From assembly GCA_964590575.1 (NCBI GenBank), contig CAZPWM010000104.1, positions 1-11,117 of the forward strand: DNA of 11,117 nt. Reading direction: 5' to 3'. A program made the translations under genes and the position numbers. Each line of letters opens with the position of its first letter. Position 1 is the stretch's first letter. Below are positions 1 to 9,408 of the stretch, piece after piece. This stretch comes from an uncultured archaeon. Lineage in GTDB: Archaea > Asgardarchaeota > Thorarchaeia > Thorarchaeales > Thorarchaeaceae. The notes under the pieces were generated by a model. It made no database searches. It saw only the letters and a list, made by a program, of their open reading frames with translations, and was not told the DNA's origin.

Positions 1-160
1 CAACGAGGGAGGTTATTTTTGAAGAGACGTTCTATGTCGTTTCGGAGTCTAGGTCACTGATAAGTGGTAGACCATCCATGTTTGTTACAACAACCCCTCG
101 GACTCCTTCCTGTGACTTGATTTTGGAAAGAATCCCTTGGAGTTTTTCTTGGCTAATCAA
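1..160 (-). CDS. Roadblock/LC7 (MglB/LAMTOR2-like) domain protein, partial at window edge, with an in-frame TAG at 34-32
   Basis: From TTG at 160 (GAGG about 9 nt upstream) the frame reads MISQEKLQGILSKIKSQEGVRGVVVTNMDGLPLISDLDSETT*NVSSKITSLV. The helix followed by GVRGVVVTxxDGLPL is the typical roadblock N-terminus. The residues after the TAG resemble roadblock helix 2. The N-terminal extension to 313 in the ORF track is probably non-coding. Confidence 0.8.
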
Positions 161-593
161 CGTGCAGAATCCTCGCTGCTTCAACTGTGCACTACCAAAT
201 ACGCCGCAGTTGACTATTTTAGACTTGTGGAGATATGTTACCAGTCCACAGGGTTCATTTGCGCATTTGAAGAATATTTGGGGTTGTGTTACAGCTGTAA
301 TAGACTTAGACATGCATTAAATTCATGTTCTAGTAGAAGTGAAAATTGTATGTCTTTTTATTGTCCTGTCAGAACAATCCTCTGGCTCCCTCATTGGTTC
401 ACAAAGCCTACTGGGACGAGCTAAAGTCACCGTCAGTTTGCCGGAGACTCTAACTGTCTGTGGAGAGGATGTAAGACTTTGGAAATCATCAGGATTTATT
501 CAGAGCAAGCCTCTGAGAAGCAGAAACCGAACATCAATCAAGGACTCTAATGTTCAAGATTGTCTAGGTTTCGGGAAACGGTTGTGTTACATA

Positions 594-633
594 GAAAAAT
601 AGGTGAGGTCGTGCCTGTGAATAGAGCACGACC
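594..633 (-). terminator. Putative terminator hairpin plus oligo-T downstream of the Sec23/24-like gene
   Basis: Perfect 8-bp inverted repeat GGTCGTGC (607-614) / GCACGACC (626-633), 22 nt past the stop at 656. On the minus strand it is followed by TATTTTTCT. Confidence 0.55.
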
Positions 634-655
634 GTTTATTGTAATATCAAGAGAG

Positions 656-2272
656 CTATTCTTCTTCCTTTTCGTCAAAGAGTTTCTTTGAGCTTCTTTT
701 ACTCTGAGCAAGACTGCCAGTGAACGCCTCGTCTGCTGCTCCAGAAGGGGCCGCTGAAGGTGCTCGTTCTAGCATCTCTTCCTGACGAGTAATCTCCTCC
801 TCCTCGTTGTTCAGAACATTGTCAGTCTTGTCTAACATTGCTTGGACACTTGCAGGAGCGGCCCCAGCTTTTGTCTTCAGAGCCTTTCTGTAGGAAGCAA
901 TTCGCTTTCGTCCTTTTTCTCTGTCACCGCGGAAGGATTCCTCACCAGCTTTCTGCGTCACAAAGGTAGCACCCACCGTTGGGTCGAGAGTTTTCATCAG
1001 CTCGTCCTCATTTTTCGTAACATGAAGTTTGGTGGTGAGTGAACGGATTCTTCGAGCACCTGCTTCATCCGTGTAAGTTACTTGGACCTGTATTGGTACT
1101 TCAGACTCTTTGATTTCCGTTTCGGGTTCAATCTCGAAGTAAAGTTCATGATTCTCACCTACAGCTCCAATCTTACTCTCACTTGTCTTCTTTAGCTGGT
1201 CAACTACAGCTCGGGAAACTCCAGATGCGTCTTTGACCGTGACGCCAGGGGGTGTTATGAGGCGAACCTCTACATCCCTACCAAGAAGCGATGCTCCAGC
1301 CAGTTCAGCAAGACTTCGGTCAAGCTCATTTGGAGTGACATAGTACATCTGGCCACCTGTAGCCTCTGGCAAGAGACCCAAGGTCTGAAGTTCCATACCC
1401 GCACCAGATGCAATACCAACGACATCCACTGCAGTACCTAGCTCCATGAACATCTTTCCTAGGTCTTCGTAGTATGTGCTTGCAGGGGTCACTTGGTATC
1501 CTTCAAGCGCGCCAATTCCTTCGTTGGCTAACCCATCAGTCAGAAGAACCACTCTTCCAACATTACGATGCTTGGCAATAACATAGGCCATTCCTACTGC
1601 GGGACCCAGAGCGGTTCCACCTTGGTCACGAAGCGCCTGTACATGTTTCTTTAGCCGATCCGAATTCTTTCCTACACCCACTAATTTTACCGTATCAAGC
1701 AGTTTCTTTGTAGACTCCATGATATCCTTTAGGCTTGCAAAGGAGTCTCTCGGAAGTTCGATAGGATTTCCATTTTCTAGATTTCTGGCTATGACTGAGC
1801 TCTCAAACTCTATCAGACCGAACATTGTGTCTGGCGCATTTGCCGCAAGACTGTCAATGGATGTGTTCAGACTTCGTTTGACTGCAGCTAGGTTTGCACC
1901 AGCCATTGATCCTGATACATCAATAAGTCCAAGGAATGAACGTCCGCCTACGGATACTGTATCAGTAGTTGTATCTGGGGGTGGTTTAATAGTGAAATCA
2001 GTGTCATCACCTGCTACAAAAATCTCACCTTCTATCACGTTAAGAGTCCCGCAGAACGGGCATACAAAATGCTTACCGACCTTTGAATCCTCTTGGATTT
2101 GGTCCAAACTAAGAAGGAAACCATTACACTTGTGGCATGCTATGGGCTTTCCTACAATCTTGGTTGTCTCATGCGCTAGATGACCAAATTCTACACGCAA
2201 GACATATGGAATGTCGCTCAGTACCTTCCTCGAAGCAGGAAAGGATTCTGAGCTAGTTCTCAACATAGGCAT
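656..2272 (-). CDS. Sec23/Sec24-like protein (zinc finger + vWA trunk + beta-sandwich + helical C-terminus)
   Basis: PIACHKC...FVCPFCGTLN (C46/C49/C71/C74) matches the Sec23/24 Zn-finger pattern. The vWA domain has DVSGS, GGTALG and LLTDG. QVQVTYTDEAGARRIRSLT matches the Sec23/24 beta-sandwich strand motif (Q..x.Y....G.RR.R..T). AGGAG RBS at 2288-2284. Confidence 0.85.
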   Translation of the reverse strand: MPMLRTSSESFPASRKVLSDIPYVLRVEFGHLAHETTKIVGKPIACHKCNGFLLSLDQIQEDSKVGKHFVCPFCGTLNVIEGEIFVAGDDTDFTIKPPPDTTTDTVSVGGRSFLGLIDVSGSMAGANLAAVKRSLNTSIDSLAANAPDTMFGLIEFESSVIARNLENGNPIELPRDSFASLKDIMESTKKLLDTVKLVGVGKNSDRLKKHVQALRDQGGTALGPAVGMAYVIAKHRNVGRVVLLTDGLANEGIGALEGYQVTPASTYYEDLGKMFMELGTAVDVVGIASGAGMELQTLGLLPEATGGQMYYVTPNELDRSLAELAGASLLGRDVEVRLITPPGVTVKDASGVSRAVVDQLKKTSESKIGAVGENHELYFEIEPETEIKESEVPIQVQVTYTDEAGARRIRSLTTKLHVTKNEDELMKTLDPTVGATFVTQKAGEESFRGDREKGRKRIASYRKALKTKAGAAPASVQAMLDKTDNVLNNEEEEITRQEEMLERAPSAAPSGAADEAFTGSLAQSKRSSKKLFDEKEEE

Positions 2273-2404
2273 CTATTATTCGACTCCTAAAATATATGGG
2301 CGGACTTTTGCATGAGTGGTTTTAAGTGCTATCACGATACCTGAATAAGTGTGAATCTCCAAAAAAAGAGAATAACACACATAGACGTAACATATTTACA
2401 CACC

Positions 2405-2448
2405 TATTTATTGAACTACAGTGTAGACAATTCAGACCTCTTAGGAGG
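2405..2448 (+). promoter_or_regulatory. Putative TATA-like box and Shine-Dalgarno for the roadblock gene
   Basis: TATTTATT at 2405-2412 and AGGAGG at 2443-2448, 11 nt before ATG 2460. Confidence 0.45.
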
Positions 2449-2459
2449 AAAACTCACAG

Positions 2460-2825
2460 ATGGTGGACCAAGCAAAGATTGAACAAGTCGTACAAGAAAC
2501 GATGGCTGCTAATGCAGATTTGGAAGGCATTGTCATATGCGATGCTAAGGGAAAAGTACTATTCGGGCATACAATCAGTGGAGGAACAAAACACTCTGAT
2601 ATCGCGGAGCTTGCCGTGAAGATAGCAACCAATTCTTCCCAGCTTGCCGCTGGTCTGGACAAGGGAGGTCTGAAGGAAGTCAGTATTGCATCGGACCACG
2701 GGTTTATTGTCATCCTTGGCGACGTGAAAATTGTGTTGGCAGGAATTGCAGGCGAAGGCGCACGTGAATCATTAGGACTTCTGAGGATGGCTCTACGAAG
2801 AGCACTCTTGCGGATAGTTGCGTAG
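2460..2825 (+). CDS. Roadblock/LC7 (MglB/LAMTOR-like) domain protein
   Basis: 121 aa. Contains LEGIVICDAKGKVL, GGLKEVSIASDHGFIVI and the C-terminal helix LGLLRMALRRA typical of roadblock/MglB. Strong RBS. Confidence 0.85.
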   Translation: MVDQAKIEQVVQETMAANADLEGIVICDAKGKVLFGHTISGGTKHSDIAELAVKIATNSSQLAAGLDKGGLKEVSIASDHGFIVILGDVKIVLAGIAGEGARESLGLLRMALRRALLRIVA

Positions 2826-3021: not shown

Positions 3022-6000
3022 TTGGTTCACATTGAGAAGCTGGTATGCAAGGGCTTCAAATCGTTCGGTCGAGATTCAGTCAGTATTAGGCTCAACCAAG
3101 GATTCACCTGCATCGTAGGACCAAATGGTTCAGGAAAGTCCAATGTGATTGATGCTATTCTTTTCGTTCTAGGACAACTCAGCGCTAAGACTCTTCGTGC
3201 TACTGTGTTTTCAGACTTGCTTTACTCGCCTCCAAAACCGAATATGCCTCCGAAAGCAAAGTCTGCTGTGGTAGAGCTCCATTTCAACAACAAAGACAGG
3301 AAGCTTCAGATTGATGCAGATCGTGTTGTGATTGAGAGAGAGCTGGATGATTCGGGAAAATCAGTATGTCGAATCAATGGAAAGGTAGTGACACGTTCTG
3401 CGGTGTTGGATGTATTAGGCGCCATTGGTGTTGACCCTAATGGATACAATCTTGTCCTTCAGGGGGAAATCGCTCAGATGGTCAAGGTCAGTCCTAGTGA
3501 GCGACGTAAATTGGTTGAAGAGATTGCAGGGATATCAGCATACGATGAGCAGAAGGACAAAGCTCTGAAGAAACTGGCTGAGAGCGAGAGCAACTTAGGT
3601 AAGGTCGACATGCAGCTTCAAGAACGTCGTCGGCATCTTGAGAAATTGGAGGGTGATATGTCGGATGCACGGAGGTATCAAAATCTCCACAAACAGATAC
3701 GAAAGCATAGGGTTGACATTCTTGCGTGGAGCATTATCAAGGGCAAATCGAGGATAGCAACTATCAACGAAACTCAGGCACAACGTGCTGAGGAAGCAGA
3801 GAGTCTTGTCAAAGAGTTCGTCGAGGTGGAAACCGGGATAAAAAGTACAGATGCCGAGATTGAGAAAATTGATTATGATATCGATCAAATCACTGGTGGA
3901 GACTCAACTAGGGTATCAGAGCAGTACGGTATCGTGTCTGCTGCAGTCACCCATGTAAAAGGAGATCTTGAACGGGCACAAGCGGAATTAGATGGAACCA
4001 GTAGTCAAAGAACTGCGCTACAAGAAGATCTTGAAACTACTCAAGATGAAATTAGCCATAATGAGCAAATTATGACTGATAAAAACAATGAACTCACATC
4101 GCTTGAAAAAGAGATAGCTGGAACAACTGCAGAAATTATTCGGCTTGAGGATATGTCAGAGAGAGCGCAGGTAGCGTACTATGAAACTACGTTGCGTCTA
4201 CAAGATTTGAATAACCAAATGAGACATCTAGATGAGGGTGTTTCCGAGGTTCGATCAACAATAAAATCTGACAATAGGGAACTTGGGCTAGCATACGAGG
4301 AACTCCGAGATGCAACCGAGAGTATAGAGAGAACTGAAACTGAGTTTTCACAGCTGAAGGAAACTATCCCTGAAAGGAAGATAGAGTTAGAAAAGTCTGA
4401 AGAACTTGAAAAGAAAGATCAGAGAGAGATTGATAGTTTAACTGAACAACTCTCTATTGTGGATGCAGAAGTAGCAGAGAGCGCGAAAATTGTGGCTCAG
4501 ACAAGGGAAGAACTCATCAAGGTTCAAGCTCGTCAAGAGGCTTTGAAGGAGGCAGAAGACACCTTTCTAAAGAGACGACGAGCAATAGCCACAGTTCTTG
4601 AACTCAGAGATGCAGGCGCTATAGGTGGGATTCATGGTACTGTAGCTGAGCTTGGAACTATAGATCCAGATTATGCTGTAGCACTAGAGATTGCAGGAGG
4701 CAATAGACTTTCACATATTGTTGTTGAGAATGAACAGGTAGCAACTGAATGTGTCAATGTTCTGAAGAATGAGAGAATTGGCAGAGCCTCATTTATTCCA
4801 CTCGATAAGATCAAAACACAACCTCCAGGAAAATTACCCAAAGATGACGGTGTCATCGATTTCGCACTGAATCTCGTCAAGTTCGACCCAAAAATGCGTC
4901 CAGCCTTTGAGTTTGTATTCTCTGATACTATCGTAACAGAAGATTTTGATACTGCCAAGAAACAAGGATTCCAAGGTCAAAGAGCTGTTTCACTAGATGG
5001 AGACCTCATAGAACGTTCTGGATTGATGACAGGAGGGTACTTCCAGAAAGCAGCTGTTGGTTTATCATTGCAAGTGGAAGATACCAGTCCAGAAATTACC
5101 AGGCGTCTTCAAGGTTTGGAAGAGATTCTGAATGACCTGCGTAGTAAACAAAATACACTTCGCAGCGAGAGAACAAGTCACGAAAAAGAAGTTCAAGACC
5201 TCTCAAAAACAAACTATAGACTCCGCATGGAACTCGAGAGATTTGAAGAGCGGTTTGAAGAATTGAAATCAAAATCAGAGCTGCTGCGAGAACGTATAGA
5301 TAAAGCCAACCTTACAATTAGCGAGCTCGAAGCTCAGGTTAAGGACCTCCAGGAGCGAGATGATGAACTTACTGTTCAACGTGAGCGAGTTAGAGCTCAA
5401 CGTGACGAAGCAAATGAAACATTGGTGACCTCGGATGCAAACAAGCTCAACCAAGAAATCAAAGATTTGAAGGAAGTGCAAGAGCAGTACCAGAGGCAGA
5501 GAGAGAAACTCCAGAGTGAAATAACCTCAGTAAGAGTGGCACTTGACGAGCGACTTGGACCAAAGGCAATTGAGATAGAATCCAAGATTCAGGCTCAAGA
5601 TGCAATAATTCCTGGTCTTGAAGAAGAGGTAAAACGATTACAGATGGGGCTCTCTGAGAGGGAGAAAGAGTTTGAAAAGCTCAAAGAGGAGCGAGAACGT
5701 ATTGACGATGCTGTCAAGGATAAACGGGTTCGCCAACTTGAACTAAAGGAAGACCTACGAAATCTAAGGTTAAGACACGAGGAGATTCGTGAAGCACAAA
5801 CATCCAATGAGAAAGCTGTATACAGGCTTCAAACTGAACAAAACAGGCTAGAAACTGATATTGTTGCTTTTGTTGCTGAACTGAACACTGTGGCTGTTGC
5901 TCAAGAAGCGCTTGAAGAAAGAGAGGAAGAACGTGAACTCACCTACAAGGAATTAGAAGAACTTGAAGAGAAAATTAAAGAGATTGAGCGAGAGCTCGAA

Positions 6001-6612
6001 GCTATGGGTCCAGTCAACCTGAAATCGCTTACTGATTATGACATGGAGAAAGAACGTTACGAGGAAATCGTTGACAAAAAGACTGGACTAGAAAACGAAC
6101 GACGAGAGATTCTCGCGTTCATGGAGGATCTTGAAGCTGAGAAGACGCAGAAATTCCTCACGGTCTATAACGAGATTGCAGACAACTTCTCTACTGTGTT
6201 TGCACAACTTTCACCAGATGGTGAGGCTAGTCTTATGCTTGAAAATCCCGAATATCCTTTGATGGGAGGGATAACGGTTCGATCAAAGCCACGAGGGAAA
6301 GAGCTAGTAACCCTTGATGCTATGAGTGGCGGAGAGAAGACTCTTACTGGACTTGCACTTATTTTTGCGATTCAGATGTACAGCCCGGCGAGTTTTTACA
6401 TTTTTGATGAGATAGATGCAGCGCTTGATAATGTCAACGCTCATAATGTGGCGCTCCTCATCTCAAAAATGTCGAAAAACTCACAATTTGTAGTTGTTTC
6501 GTTGAGAGACACCACAGTTCGAAAAGCTGATTTGTTGGTTGGGATTGCAAACCAAGATGGAATTTCAAGGATTGTTTCAGTTGATTTGGAGGAGGTAGCT
6601 GCATCAACATGA
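3022..6612 (+). CDS. smc: Chromosome segregation protein SMC
   Basis: 1196 aa, TTG start. Walker A GPNGSGKS, Q-loop LQG, long coiled coils, hinge (GIHGTVAELG, IGRASFIPL, GDLIERSGLMTGG), signature MSGGEK, Walker B/D-loop IFDEIDAALD, and archaeal-type VSLR at the H-loop. Confidence 0.98.
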   Translation: MVHIEKLVCKGFKSFGRDSVSIRLNQGFTCIVGPNGSGKSNVIDAILFVLGQLSAKTLRATVFSDLLYSPPKPNMPPKAKSAVVELHFNNKDRKLQIDADRVVIERELDDSGKSVCRINGKVVTRSAVLDVLGAIGVDPNGYNLVLQGEIAQMVKVSPSERRKLVEEIAGISAYDEQKDKALKKLAESESNLGKVDMQLQERRRHLEKLEGDMSDARRYQNLHKQIRKHRVDILAWSIIKGKSRIATINETQAQRAEEAESLVKEFVEVETGIKSTDAEIEKIDYDIDQITGGDSTRVSEQYGIVSAAVTHVKGDLERAQAELDGTSSQRTALQEDLETTQDEISHNEQIMTDKNNELTSLEKEIAGTTAEIIRLEDMSERAQVAYYETTLRLQDLNNQMRHLDEGVSEVRSTIKSDNRELGLAYEELRDATESIERTETEFSQLKETIPERKIELEKSEELEKKDQREIDSLTEQLSIVDAEVAESAKIVAQTREELIKVQARQEALKEAEDTFLKRRRAIATVLELRDAGAIGGIHGTVAELGTIDPDYAVALEIAGGNRLSHIVVENEQVATECVNVLKNERIGRASFIPLDKIKTQPPGKLPKDDGVIDFALNLVKFDPKMRPAFEFVFSDTIVTEDFDTAKKQGFQGQRAVSLDGDLIERSGLMTGGYFQKAAVGLSLQVEDTSPEITRRLQGLEEILNDLRSKQNTLRSERTSHEKEVQDLSKTNYRLRMELERFEERFEELKSKSELLRERIDKANLTISELEAQVKDLQERDDELTVQRERVRAQRDEANETLVTSDANKLNQEIKDLKEVQEQYQRQREKLQSEITSVRVALDERLGPKAIEIESKIQAQDAIIPGLEEEVKRLQMGLSEREKEFEKLKEERERIDDAVKDKRVRQLELKEDLRNLRLRHEEIREAQTSNEKAVYRLQTEQNRLETDIVAFVAELNTVAVAQEALEEREEERELTYKELEELEEKIKEIERELEAMGPVNLKSLTDYDMEKERYEEIVDKKTGLENERREILAFMEDLEAEKTQKFLTVYNEIADNFSTVFAQLSPDGEASLMLENPEYPLMGGITVRSKPRGKELVTLDAMSGGEKTLTGLALIFAIQMYSPASFYIFDEIDAALDNVNAHNVALLISKMSKNSQFVVVSLRDTTVRKADLLVGIANQDGISRIVSVDLEEVAAST

Positions 6613-7331
6613 TGGATGACGATTCTCCCTTCTGGGCAACTCCGCCATACATACTTCTTACTGATGTACTCCAGTTAGACAAAGTTGATCCATGGAATGT
6701 GGATGTTGGCAAGCTTGTAGGGAGTTTCCTTGATGAGATGAAGCGGCTGGGAAACATCGACTTTCGTATCTCAGGAAATGCTTTGTACTCAGCCTCAGTG
6801 ATTTTCATGAGAAAGACCAGAGAGCTCGTTGAACTGGGTCTTTTGCCGCCAGATGAAGATGAGGATGAAGTAGAACTTGTGATTCCACTCATCCGTCCAC
6901 CCTTCAGACTGACAAACCGACGCGTGACCCTAGAGGAACTACTTTTCGCGATGGACCATGTCCTCAGCAAAGGTGCCAGACAACACTCTACACCGACGAA
7001 GCGAAAATATAGCTCAAAGGCGGATCCGTTGACATTTCAGATGAATGTGGACCAAGCCAATATTGAGGAAACAATCGCTGATGTCTATGAGGACCTCCGT
7101 AGAATAATGGAAGTTGGTCAGGTGTCGAAGTTTGTTGACGTACTCATGAACAATACTAGACAAGAAATAGTGCGTGTTTTCTTCTCATTGCTTTTCCTTT
7201 TTGCACGAGATTACATTGACATTTGGATGGATGATGAAAGTGTTATCTGGATAAAACTTCAGGAACCGCACAAGGTCACAGATGAGGATGTACTTCCTGA
7301 AGAGGAGATACAACCGGATATCAAGACCTAA
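6609..7331 (+). CDS. scpA: Segregation and condensation protein A (kleisin)
   Basis: ATGA overlap with the smc stop. N-terminal DPWNVDV, archaeal ScpA motif RRVTLEELL, and a C-terminal winged-helix-like region (RQEIVRVFFSLLFL...IDIW). Confidence 0.93.
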   Translation: MMDDDSPFWATPPYILLTDVLQLDKVDPWNVDVGKLVGSFLDEMKRLGNIDFRISGNALYSASVIFMRKTRELVELGLLPPDEDEDEVELVIPLIRPPFRLTNRRVTLEELLFAMDHVLSKGARQHSTPTKRKYSSKADPLTFQMNVDQANIEETIADVYEDLRRIMEVGQVSKFVDVLMNNTRQEIVRVFFSLLFLFARDYIDIWMDDESVIWIKLQEPHKVTDEDVLPEEEIQPDIKT

Positions 7332-7341
7332 GGTGATAGTG

Positions 7342-7896
7342 TTGGATGAGGATATGATTACGCTAGAAGCAGCCCTTTACGTTTCAGGCAGAGCACTGAC
7401 CTTGGATGAGCTAGCAGACATCATTGGAAAATCTCAATCAACAGCACAAAAGATACTTGATGACTTGAGCTTTGAATACAACAAAAGAGAAGGGGCTTTG
7501 GAGGTGGTGGCACTACCTAAGGACCGCTATGTGATGCAACTTAAACCCGAGCTCACTCCGCGGGTTGGAAAGTTGATACCTGGGGGGCTCTTGTCCTTTG
7601 CTACTCTCCAAACATTGGTTTTTGTCGCTCTTAAACAGCCCATCATTCAATCAGAGCTCGTTGCGCAACGTGGGACACATTGCTACGATCATATCAAAGA
7701 CCTCATTGACAAGAAGTTCATTGATGCAGTTCCAGAAGGTCGTTCGAAGTTGTTGACGACAACCCAGCTCTTCGCAGATTACTTTGGTCTGGATTATGAT
7801 CGTGTGAAACTCAAGGCTCAGCTCAAGTTCAAGATGAAAAGGATACTTGAAGACCAACGTGAAGTGGAAGAAGCCGCAGGGATGGTTCCCGACTAG
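7342..7896 (+). CDS. scpB: Segregation and condensation protein B (kite)
   Basis: LEAALYVSGRALTLDELA, LSFATLQTLVFVALKQPI..SEL...RG, and GRSKLLTTTQLFADYFGL are ScpB motifs. Start is re-called at TTG 7342 because AGGTGA (7331-7336) overlaps the scpA stop. The ORF-track start at 7282 lies inside scpA. Confidence 0.93.
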   Translation: MDEDMITLEAALYVSGRALTLDELADIIGKSQSTAQKILDDLSFEYNKREGALEVVALPKDRYVMQLKPELTPRVGKLIPGGLLSFATLQTLVFVALKQPIIQSELVAQRGTHCYDHIKDLIDKKFIDAVPEGRSKLLTTTQLFADYFGLDYDRVKLKAQLKFKMKRILEDQREVEEAAGMVPD

Positions 7897-8394: not shown

Positions 8395-9408
8395 CTAACA
8401 TACACGAGGAACAGGTTCGCCATAGGGCACTTGAATAATCTTACGTCCTCCAATTGTTGTCCGCATCACGACTCTGGCCTTACCATCAAGGACTTTGCCA
8501 ACAACTTTAGCATCACTTGTAGTCTTATGTTTAGAAAGGGCATCTAGAATGTCATTGCTTTTCTTCGAGTCTACACTCATCACAGCTGTGCCTTCACAGC
8601 TCATGTGAAGCGGATCAAGTCCCAATACATTGCACAAGGATTGGACTGCTGGACGGATGGGAATCTGATCTTCTTGAAGTTCAAATTCAACCTTAGACTT
8701 TGATGCAATCTCGTTTAAAGCCACGGCTGTACCGCCCCTTGTAGGGTCCTTCATTGCATGAATACCACCTACATCAAGACAATCGCGTATGGGTTCCCAG
8801 AGAGGTGCAACATCACTTATCAAATCGGTCTCGAACTTCAACCCTTCTCGATGTGCTAGCAGGGAGGTTCCATGATCACCAATTGGTCCAGTGAGAATTA
8901 TGCTATCACCAATCCTAGCACCACTGTCACTGATTGGATCTTCAAGATAGGGTATTCCTATGCCTGTTGTTGACATCACAATTCCATCGAGGGTGCCTGG
9001 TGGCATGACCTTGGTATCGCCTGCAATCATTGCTACATCGAGGGGTTCAATGATACTATTGAGAGACCTGAGTATAGACTGCAAAGTAGCAATCTCAACA
9101 CCTTCTTCGATAATCACAGTGTTCGTCATTGCAATAGGTTGAGCTCCCATGACAGCTAAATCGTTGATCGTACCACATGCAGCCAATACTCCTAGATCAC
9201 CACCAGGAAACACGAGTGGATGTACTGTATGGGCATCGGTGCACACAATTAGATTGGCTCCTGCAGCTATAAGGGTGGCGCCATCATCCATTTCATCTAG
9301 ACCAATGGTCCCAATCTTCCTTCGACCAAAAGAGGGGATTATAACGTCTTCCAGAAGACGCTGCATTATCTTGCCACCAGCTCCGTGTGCAGTCTCAATC
9401 TTTGGCAT
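8395..9408 (-). CDS. hypE: [NiFe]-hydrogenase maturation protein HypE (carbamoyl dehydratase)
   Basis: AHGAGG N-terminus, DDGA, TDAHTVHPLVFPGGDLG, GTINDLAVMGA, GDTKV, AMKDPTRGG, and terminal PRVC with the catalytic C-terminal Cys. Confidence 0.97.
   Translation of the reverse strand: MPKIETAHGAGGKIMQRLLEDVIIPSFGRRKIGTIGLDEMDDGATLIAAGANLIVCTDAHTVHPLVFPGGDLGVLAACGTINDLAVMGAQPIAMTNTVIIEEGVEIATLQSILRSLNSIIEPLDVAMIAGDTKVMPPGTLDGIVMSTTGIGIPYLEDPISDSGARIGDSIILTGPIGDHGTSLLAHREGLKFETDLISDVAPLWEPIRDCLDVGGIHAMKDPTRGGTAVALNEIASKSKVEFELQEDQIPIRPAVQSLCNVLGLDPLHMSCEGTAVMSVDSKKSNDILDALSKHKTTSDAKVVGKVLDGKARVVMRTTIGGRKIIQVPYGEPVPRVC

Follow-up and report, generated by a model that had tools for sequence, protein, structure and literature searches.

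A Sec23/24-like gene at an MglA/roadblock cluster

The stretch of DNA analysed here, referred to as the window, is the entire contig C104 (11,117 bp) of a Thorarchaeal genome assembly (G000; 3.4 Mb in 194 contigs, 91% complete). Near its left end, a gene for a protein with a Sec23/24 fold, which we call Sec23L, lies between two genes for roadblock proteins, RblL and RblR; to the right of RblR are the genes for SMC, ScpA and ScpB (Table 1). A first-pass annotation of this DNA had proposed that the left-hand trio forms a unit of a coat protein with its GTPase regulators. From a comparison with the corresponding loci of relatives, we conclude, with a probability of about 0.8, that Sec23L, a known Sec23/24-like gene, was inserted in this family alone into an older cluster of MglA and roadblock genes, rather than being a component of an ancestral coat machine.

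The assembly holds no sequence left of the window, as the contig ends at base 1. In relatives, RblL is followed by a gene for a 154-residue roadblock protein (Rbl154), a variable spacer, an MglA-type GTPase gene, an MglB-like roadblock gene, UPPS and a gene for a 398-residue protein. The first-pass annotation had suspected a small GTPase past the left edge, and this suspicion was correct: the MglA-type gene was found whole in 26/31 family loci, two genes beyond RblL by way of Rbl154. In G000 itself it occupies C136:705-1274, directly followed by the MglB-like gene and then by UPPS and the 398-residue gene; Rbl154 falls within the assembly gap between C136 and C104. The GTPase, a single domain of 190 residues, matches MglA at 3e-38 in phmmer searches, as against 6.5e-12 for the best Arf, and reads TVAGQ at its G3 motif (Thr for Asp), which we take to be an MglA hallmark; judged by its sequence, it is a member of the MglA family. 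Rbl154 passes the Pfam threshold for MAPKK1_Int, the LAMTOR3 family (31.9 bits; cut-off 25), and its acidic C-terminal helix is invariant. The roadblock encoded after the GTPase gene matches the solved roadblock 7f8m (5e-24), which Foldseek names as a roadblock of Thorarchaeota SMTZ1-45. Because the 3.4 Mb of G000 hold just ~13 Robl_LC7 matches and 25 Arf/Ras-type matches, the grouping of four roadblock genes and MglA within ~6 kb is far from random scatter. This density belongs to the old cluster, not to Sec23L.

Within the genus, the order RblL, Sec23L, RblR is found in 15/15 loci. Another 17 loci were drawn from 15 further genera of the family: RblL and Rbl154 come after Sec23L in 16 of them, and RblR lies before it in 15. 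Furthermore, 64 of the 65 informative family genomes have Rbl154 no more than ~1.1 kb behind Sec23L and in the same orientation, a tally that pools coordinate tables and sets aside 12 further family genomes made uninformative by contig ends. However, a shared gene order is a poor guide to function within this family, because the unrelated genes for SMC, ScpA, ScpB, HypE and S8e are equally syntenic. Identity across the family is 91-99% for MglA, 85-95% for Rbl154 and 82-93% for MglB, compared with 54-75% for Sec23L. Three family genomes have the cluster with no Sec23L in place. In G341, Sec23L has been relocated to another contig, and RblL and RblR are separated by 283 bp, the cluster having closed. 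In G394 (96% complete), all that lies between RblR and RblL is a remnant of 30 codons from the C-terminus of Sec23L (query residues 507-536), with no other match in the genome, and G391 (98% complete) has the cluster and no Sec23L match at all. MglA and the roadblocks are still highly conserved in all three.

Across the phylum, Rbl154 is present in 365/400 genomes, at 60-70% identity, and in 89/90 of those of high quality; a Sec23-like gene is present in 147/400. Seventeen loci were fetched around Rbl154, 16 from other families and one from G341, which is inside the family. RblL is adjacent in 11 of these, MglB in 11 and MglA in nine, and RblR is divergent beside RblL in seven; at least RblL, Rbl154 and MglB are held together in 11/17, with a dispersed state in the remaining 6/17. 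A Sec23-like gene was found in none of the 17, and in five genomes (G025, G139, G149, G336 and G341) such a gene stands elsewhere, away from the Rbl154 locus. As Sec23L is missing from all 17 Rbl154 loci, and RblR and RblL are directly divergent in seven, the older unit appears to have been without it. Thus, the synteny of the trio, which the first-pass annotation proposed to test across Asgard genomes, is kept in the family but not beyond it, where the adjacency is not conserved among relatives; its absence from these loci, together with its loss or relocation in G341, G394 and G391, speaks against an ancestral or obligate coat-GTPase unit. SMC adjoins RblR in four of the seven divergent loci (L087, L093, L094 and L103, with four family labels), and these gene orders suggest a persistent linkage of the roadblock/MglA cluster to the chromosome-condensation genes SMC, ScpA and ScpB in Asgard archaea. 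In two of the 11 loci, from two families (L089 in G026 and L101 in G329), RblL, Rbl154 and MglB are kept with no MglA between them, so that the GTPase is less persistent than the set of roadblocks.

Outside the family, 21 Sec23L loci belonging to 16 genera were inspected. A roadblock or small GTPase gene was found within 4 kb in five loci (four genera), and by BLASTP none of these neighbours is orthologous to a cluster gene. The roadblock of L072 and the GTPase of L078 were considered as cluster orthologues and rejected, the best BLASTP results being 1.4e-9 to MglB over 45 residues and 27% identity to MglA, respectively. In both sampled genomes of another family (label f21; L067:6128-6643 and L068:8643-9260), the Sec23-like gene adjoins a gene for a hexapeptide-repeat protein with a sub-threshold match to dynactin subunit 5.

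Several points weigh against insertion as the explanation. Its direction, as opposed to ancestral presence followed by many losses, rests on outgroup comparison and not on a rooted tree. Once established, the adjacency was kept through at least 16 family genera, though other insertions between Rbl154 and MglA came and went, and so long-lasting a position of Sec23L could reflect selection for co-location. In L072, the non-orthologous roadblock gene lies directly upstream of the Sec23-like gene, as does the small GTPase gene in L078, and these neighbours hint at a recurrent association of Sec23-like genes with roadblocks and GTPases. Finally, the promoter and terminator calls described below are inferred from motif conservation only.

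Two further observations concern genes of the cluster. The 398-residue protein (L029:5658-6854; G000 C136:3874-5067) matches no Pfam family; in the family cluster its gene invariably comes after UPPS, and its identity between genera is 40-56%. In L031 (G022), the Rbl154 gene carries a 28-nt insertion after codon 28 (9368-9395, minus strand) that folds as a bulge-helix-bulge, with 3-nt bulges on both sides of a 4-bp helix (-24 kcal/mol, z -6.7). It looks like a tRNA-type intron within a protein-coding gene.

Table 1. Genes and predicted signals in the 11,117-bp window
Feature	Position	Strand	Description
RblL	1..160	-	5' fragment (53 codons) of a roadblock gene of ~99 residues, cut by the contig end
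RblL promoter-like region	170..265	-	TGCGCA palindrome 260-265; TATA-like TCTAAAATA 215-223; GAGGA, Shine-Dalgarno-like, 170-174
Terminator-like hairpin	607-633; T5 run 595-599	-	22 nt past the stop codon of Sec23L
Sec23L	656..2272	-	538-residue open reading frame (ORF); Sec23/24 fold, no gelsolin domain
Sec23L/RblR divergent spacer	2273..2459		Exactly 187 bp; each gene with its own TATA-like and GGAG-like motifs
Sec23L promoter-like motifs	TTTTAA 2320-2325; GGAG 2284-2287	-	Conserved blocks in 27 aligned family spacers
RblR promoter-like motifs	ATATTTACA 2392-2400; GGAGG 2444-2448	+	Conserved blocks in 27 aligned family spacers
RblR	2460..2825	+	Complete roadblock protein of 121 residues
SMC, ScpA, ScpB	3022..7896	+	Pfam; SMC at 3022-6612
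HypE, ribosomal protein S8e, HypA, HEAT-repeat protein			Right of ScpB, in this order

The Sec23L protein and its relatives

The Pfam matches of Sec23L run in the domain order of Sec23/24: zf-Sec23_Sec24 at residues 43-80 (E 0.003, under the cut-off), Sec23_trunk at 113-313 (E 1.6e-9) and Sec23_BS at 333-419 (E 8.2e-8; 33.2 bits against a cut-off of 33.5). An AlphaFold2 (AF2) model was built from 39 homologues, with a predicted local distance difference test score (pLDDT) of 88.4 and a predicted template-modelling score (pTM) of 0.89. In a Foldseek search of the PDB with this model, Sec23 and Sec24 chains came out on top (E ~1e-29; query-based template-modelling score, TMq, 0.72-0.74), ahead of a bacterial vWA protein (1e-16) and the archaeal protein ArnB (8s05_A; 3e-15, TMq 0.48). 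A profile of the Sec23L family, searched against the same database, matched Sec24 better than Sec23 (3e-19 versus 5e-6), with ArnB at 8.4e-9. The first-pass annotation had read the gene as a Zn-finger/vWA/beta-sandwich protein of Sec23/24 type without the GTPase-activating protein (GAP) part, and domain order, model and structural matches all agree with it. In the model, the helical domain consists of helices 422-503, followed by short terminal helices only; a gelsolin-like domain is absent both from the model and from the length of the protein, which is 538 residues compared with 705-748 for the matched Sec23/Sec24 chains. As it is modelled without a gelsolin domain, Sec23L cannot be a Sec23-type GAP.

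Among 39 sequences bearing 11 family labels, the Zn-finger cysteines C46, C49, C71 and C74 are invariant, as are D118-x-S120-x-S122, T220 and D246. We take these last five residues to be the metal ion-dependent adhesion site (MIDAS) motif of the vWA domain, and the set is complete in Sec23L; yeast Sec24, by comparison, aligns a Gly at the D246 position. Behind a variable linker, the 39-sequence consensus also conserves R-x-S-S-K-x-L-F at residues ~525-533 (window ~674-700, minus strand), which could be a candidate phosphorylation or docking motif. The closest named homologue, at 90% identity, is the 'SEC24 family transport protein' of Candidatus Thorarchaeota archaeon SMTZ1-45.

Sec23L shares its fold and domain order with COPII (coat protein complex II) Sec23/Sec24 (1M2V, 1M2O and 1PCX). 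The differences are that Sec23L is without the gelsolin domain, and hence without the arginine-finger GAP element of Sec23, and that COPII uses a Sec23/Sec24 pair, whereas there is one Sec23L match in G000 and usually one per family genome. The Asgard Sec23-like proteins described in PMC11914678 belong to the same family. As that paper reports, they have the Zn-finger, trunk, beta-sandwich and helical domains of Sec23L, and all of them are without a gelsolin domain.

Some of the nearest eukaryotic relatives may lie outside COPII. A 1027-residue rotifer protein, placed here with the non-COPII Zn-finger/vWA proteins related to CPRas (PMC2430557), aligns with Sec23L over residues 24-413 (25% identity; 121 bits), as against 27.9 bits for Sec24C in a single-sequence phmmer search of the PDB. 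The alignment covers the Zn finger and the DxSGSM, TALGPA and TDGLAN motifs; no Ras domain was detected in the rotifer protein. The idea that CPRas-type proteins are the nearest eukaryotic relatives of Sec23L is partly borne out by these alignments, the long eukaryote-like matches being two only.

The similarity to ArnB raises a different possibility for the function of the protein. Sec23L would then work as a phosphorylation-controlled signalling scaffold of vWA, beta-sandwich and helical domains, with no role in membrane traffic and with irrelevant neighbours, which is compatible with the insertion scenario. The ArnB matches given above, the intact MIDAS and the conserved C-terminal motif behind its linker fit this idea, and the ArnA-ArnB system of Sulfolobus (8S05) has the vWA, beta-sandwich and helical-bundle layout of Sec23L, ArnB sharing the core layout of Sec23/24 (PMC12852372). 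However, Sec23 and Sec24 chains match Sec23L far better than ArnB does, by both E-value and TMq. Furthermore, the Zn finger is fused within Sec23L, as in Sec23/24, and is not on a separate ArnA-like FHA protein, and Pfam scans of the window and of the relatives' loci revealed no FHA protein or kinase gene beside Sec23L. We regard an ArnB-like function as a tentative and rather unlikely alternative.

Putative transcription signals and the flanking roadblock genes

Promoter-like motifs were assigned by eye from conservation, and the calls for promoters and terminators are predictions from sequence. The TGCGCA palindrome, the TCTAAAATA box (~55-63 nt before the start codon) and a GGAG-like motif are found upstream of RblL in all family loci, and they are identical in G341, where there is no Sec23L at that site. 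The hairpin behind Sec23L has a folding energy of -15.9 kcal/mol (z -5.0), and 0/200 shuffled sequences were as good. Because each gene has separate promoter-like motifs, and a hairpin with a T5 run follows Sec23L, the signals point to three transcription units, RblL, Sec23L and RblR. The first-pass annotation had given the gap to the divergent gene as 187 bp, and this is exact.

About 100 nt ahead of RblL lies a AAATGCGCAAA element that contains the TGCGCA palindrome. It is conserved in all genera of the family compared here and could serve as the binding site of a regulator.

RblR and RblL were annotated as two dissimilar roadblock genes, and BLASTP indeed gives no alignment between them. 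RblR is a true roadblock protein, as the annotation had it. Pfam recognises it only weakly as Robl_LC7 (E 0.0073; 16.5 bits, cut-off 23), and phmmer matches it to an Asgard roadblock in the PDB at 2e-8. The AF2 model (pLDDT 79) has the secondary-structure order H-E-E-H-E-E-E-H and, in Foldseek, a TMq of 0.75-0.84 to Asgard roadblocks, MglB and LAMTOR2 (LAMTOR chains); as modelled, RblR carries the roadblock fold.

The left-hand gene differs from its first description. The listed ORF at 32-313 (minus strand) is not the RblL gene, whose true start is the TTG at 158-160. At this position, 31 of the 32 sequences compared carry TTG or GTG, preceded by a GGAG-like motif at a distance of 8-14 nt. What the window holds is a fragment that runs off the contig at base 1 after 53 codons, so that a complete roadblock domain is not present in this copy. 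The full-length orthologue at L029:9392-9775 encodes 99 residues and matches Robl_LC7 at 2.5e-16 (59.6 bits) and LAMTOR5 at 6.6e-6 (26.6 bits against 27). We considered whether the Cys-rich part of the listed ORF at 161-313, upstream of LISQEKLQ, might encode a Zn-ribbon extension. This was ruled out: stop codons interrupt it in 5/31 relatives (L039, L045, L047, L056 and L059), there is no conserved frame, the bases conserved there are the promoter-like motifs, and the region overlaps in part with an inserted repeat.

The RblL copy of G000 might also be a pseudogene, in which case the trio would be broken in this genome. An in-frame TAG at 32-34 (minus strand) stands where 28/28 aligned orthologues have Glu, and more residue changes occur within the last 10 codons ahead of the contig end. 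On the other hand, the TAG is only 32 bases from that end, where assembly errors are common, and RblL orthologues are strongly constrained, with a mean column identity of 88%. Public contigs from four salt-marsh sets gave no coverage of positions 1-62, which include the TAG and the join to C136. The stop is either an assembly error or the mark of a pseudogene, and we consider decay of this copy rather unlikely.

The spacer between Sec23L and RblL holds a copy (376..583) of a dispersed repeat of ~160-200 bp, within an insertion of ~286 bp (~294-579). In blastn searches, G000 has 11 more matches (77-94% identity) spread over 10 contigs, one of the 11 lying directly after the MglB-like gene on C136. 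The insertion is common to L043 and L046 (G016 and G020 only) and missing from L029-L031 and others. When the same salt-marsh sets were compared with window positions 1-700, the public contigs had raised depth and different flanks at 426. A search for terminal inverted repeats found just one 11-nt pair, away from the ends of the repeat. Rfam, searched with the entire window at E up to 1, gave no matches.

A probable MglA switch and the proposed place of Sec23L

The observed part of our explanation comprises gene order, distribution, folds and conserved motifs. From these we suggest that the old Asgard unit had SMC and RblR reading in one direction and RblL, Rbl154, MglA, MglB and UPPS in the other, and that it would constitute a small-GTPase switch of MglA type that includes four paralogous roadblocks. 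A Sec23/24-like gene would have entered the spacer from which RblR and RblL diverge, in a single Thorarchaeal family, bringing promoter-like motifs and a terminator-like hairpin of its own, with RblL keeping its own promoter-like motifs. MglB presumably acts on MglA as it does in bacteria, and RblL-Rbl154 and RblR may be accessory roadblock dimers, comparable to MglC or to Ragulator subunits. Sec23L is most likely a Zn-finger/vWA adaptor whose invariant MIDAS may hold an acidic or phosphorylated residue of a partner, in a role probably independent of the neighbouring roadblocks.

The cluster resembles the bacterial MglA-MglB system (Myxococcus and Thermus, with accessory MglC) in that its GTPase, which carries TVAGQ, is of MglA type, that an MglB-like gene lies next to it and that there are extra roadblock paralogues. 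It differs in being archaeal, in having four roadblock paralogues and in its linkage to SMC/ScpAB and UPPS. Ragulator-Rag (LAMTOR2/3 and LAMTOR4/5) is similar in having several distinct roadblock proteins beside a small GTPase, but the cluster GTPase is a one-domain protein of MglA type and lacks the C-terminal roadblock domain of Rag GTPases. A LAMTOR1-like anchor was not seen among the neighbouring ORFs of the cluster. PMC10933270 presents the solved structure of a Thorarchaeota roadblock and remarks that, in strain MK-D1, GTPase genes as a rule do not share operons with roadblock genes, which fits the dispersed state of 6/17 Rbl154 loci.

Could the inserted Sec23L nevertheless have been drawn into the switch? 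Within the family it might have become an effector or cargo adaptor of MglA, with the flanking roadblock dimers regulating and recruiting, as a proto-coat/GTPase module. The near-constant adjacency of Sec23L and Rbl154 in the family would favour this, as would the position of MglA and MglB two to three genes away and the compact arrangement of all six genes on one strand in G386. It is textbook knowledge that eukaryotic Sec23/24 works with an Arf-family GTPase, and PMC11914678 reports GTP-dependent binding of an Asgard GTPase of Arf type to yeast Sec23. Set against this, the cluster is older and far wider in distribution than Sec23L, which none of the 17 sampled Rbl154 loci contains; loss or relocation of Sec23L has left the cluster intact; promoter-like and terminator-like signals of its own accompany Sec23L; and unrelated neighbours are equally syntenic. 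Furthermore, PMC11914678 reports only weak, nucleotide-independent co-precipitation of three Asgard Sec23-like proteins with an Asgard Arf. A complex prediction of Sec23L 1-505 with RblL and Rbl154 (G005 chains), run with no controls, scored 0.00 and gave 'no answer', and is without weight either way. We consider such a module improbable. Its more specific form, in which MglA-GTP, or a roadblock dimer docked at the MIDAS, recruits the gelsolin-less, Sec24-like adaptor to membranes in this family, is similarly a long shot; if true, prokaryotes would have paired a small GTPase with an inner-coat protein of COPII type independently.

Thorarchaeal Sec23/24 homologues were reportedly first noted by Zaremba-Niedzwiedzka et al. 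in 2017. The Sec23-like protein itself is already published (PMC11914678), and we found no description of its arrangement in an MglA/roadblock cluster in the literature (openly readable main texts). In the available text of PMC11914678, no words beginning neighbo-, synten- or operon occur, and neither the position in the MglA/roadblock cluster nor the invariant MIDAS is met in those passages. The accessible part of bioRxiv 10.1101/2024.02.28.582541 likewise contains no gene-context analysis.

Asgard Sec23/24-like proteins have been cited as possible forerunners of COPII, and had they been stably linked to a GTPase and its regulators, candidate partners for them would have been at hand. Returning to insertion as the preferred explanation, the link between Sec23L and the GTPase is a family-specific juxtaposition, and gene position is therefore no evidence for a proto-COPII machine. 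What is of use is the deeply conserved Asgard cluster itself, with its MglA-type GTPase and four roadblocks beside SMC/ScpAB, of which Rbl154 is nearly universal in the phylum. Also of use are the natural Sec23L 'knock-outs' and relocations (G394, G391 and G341), which can serve as comparison genomes.

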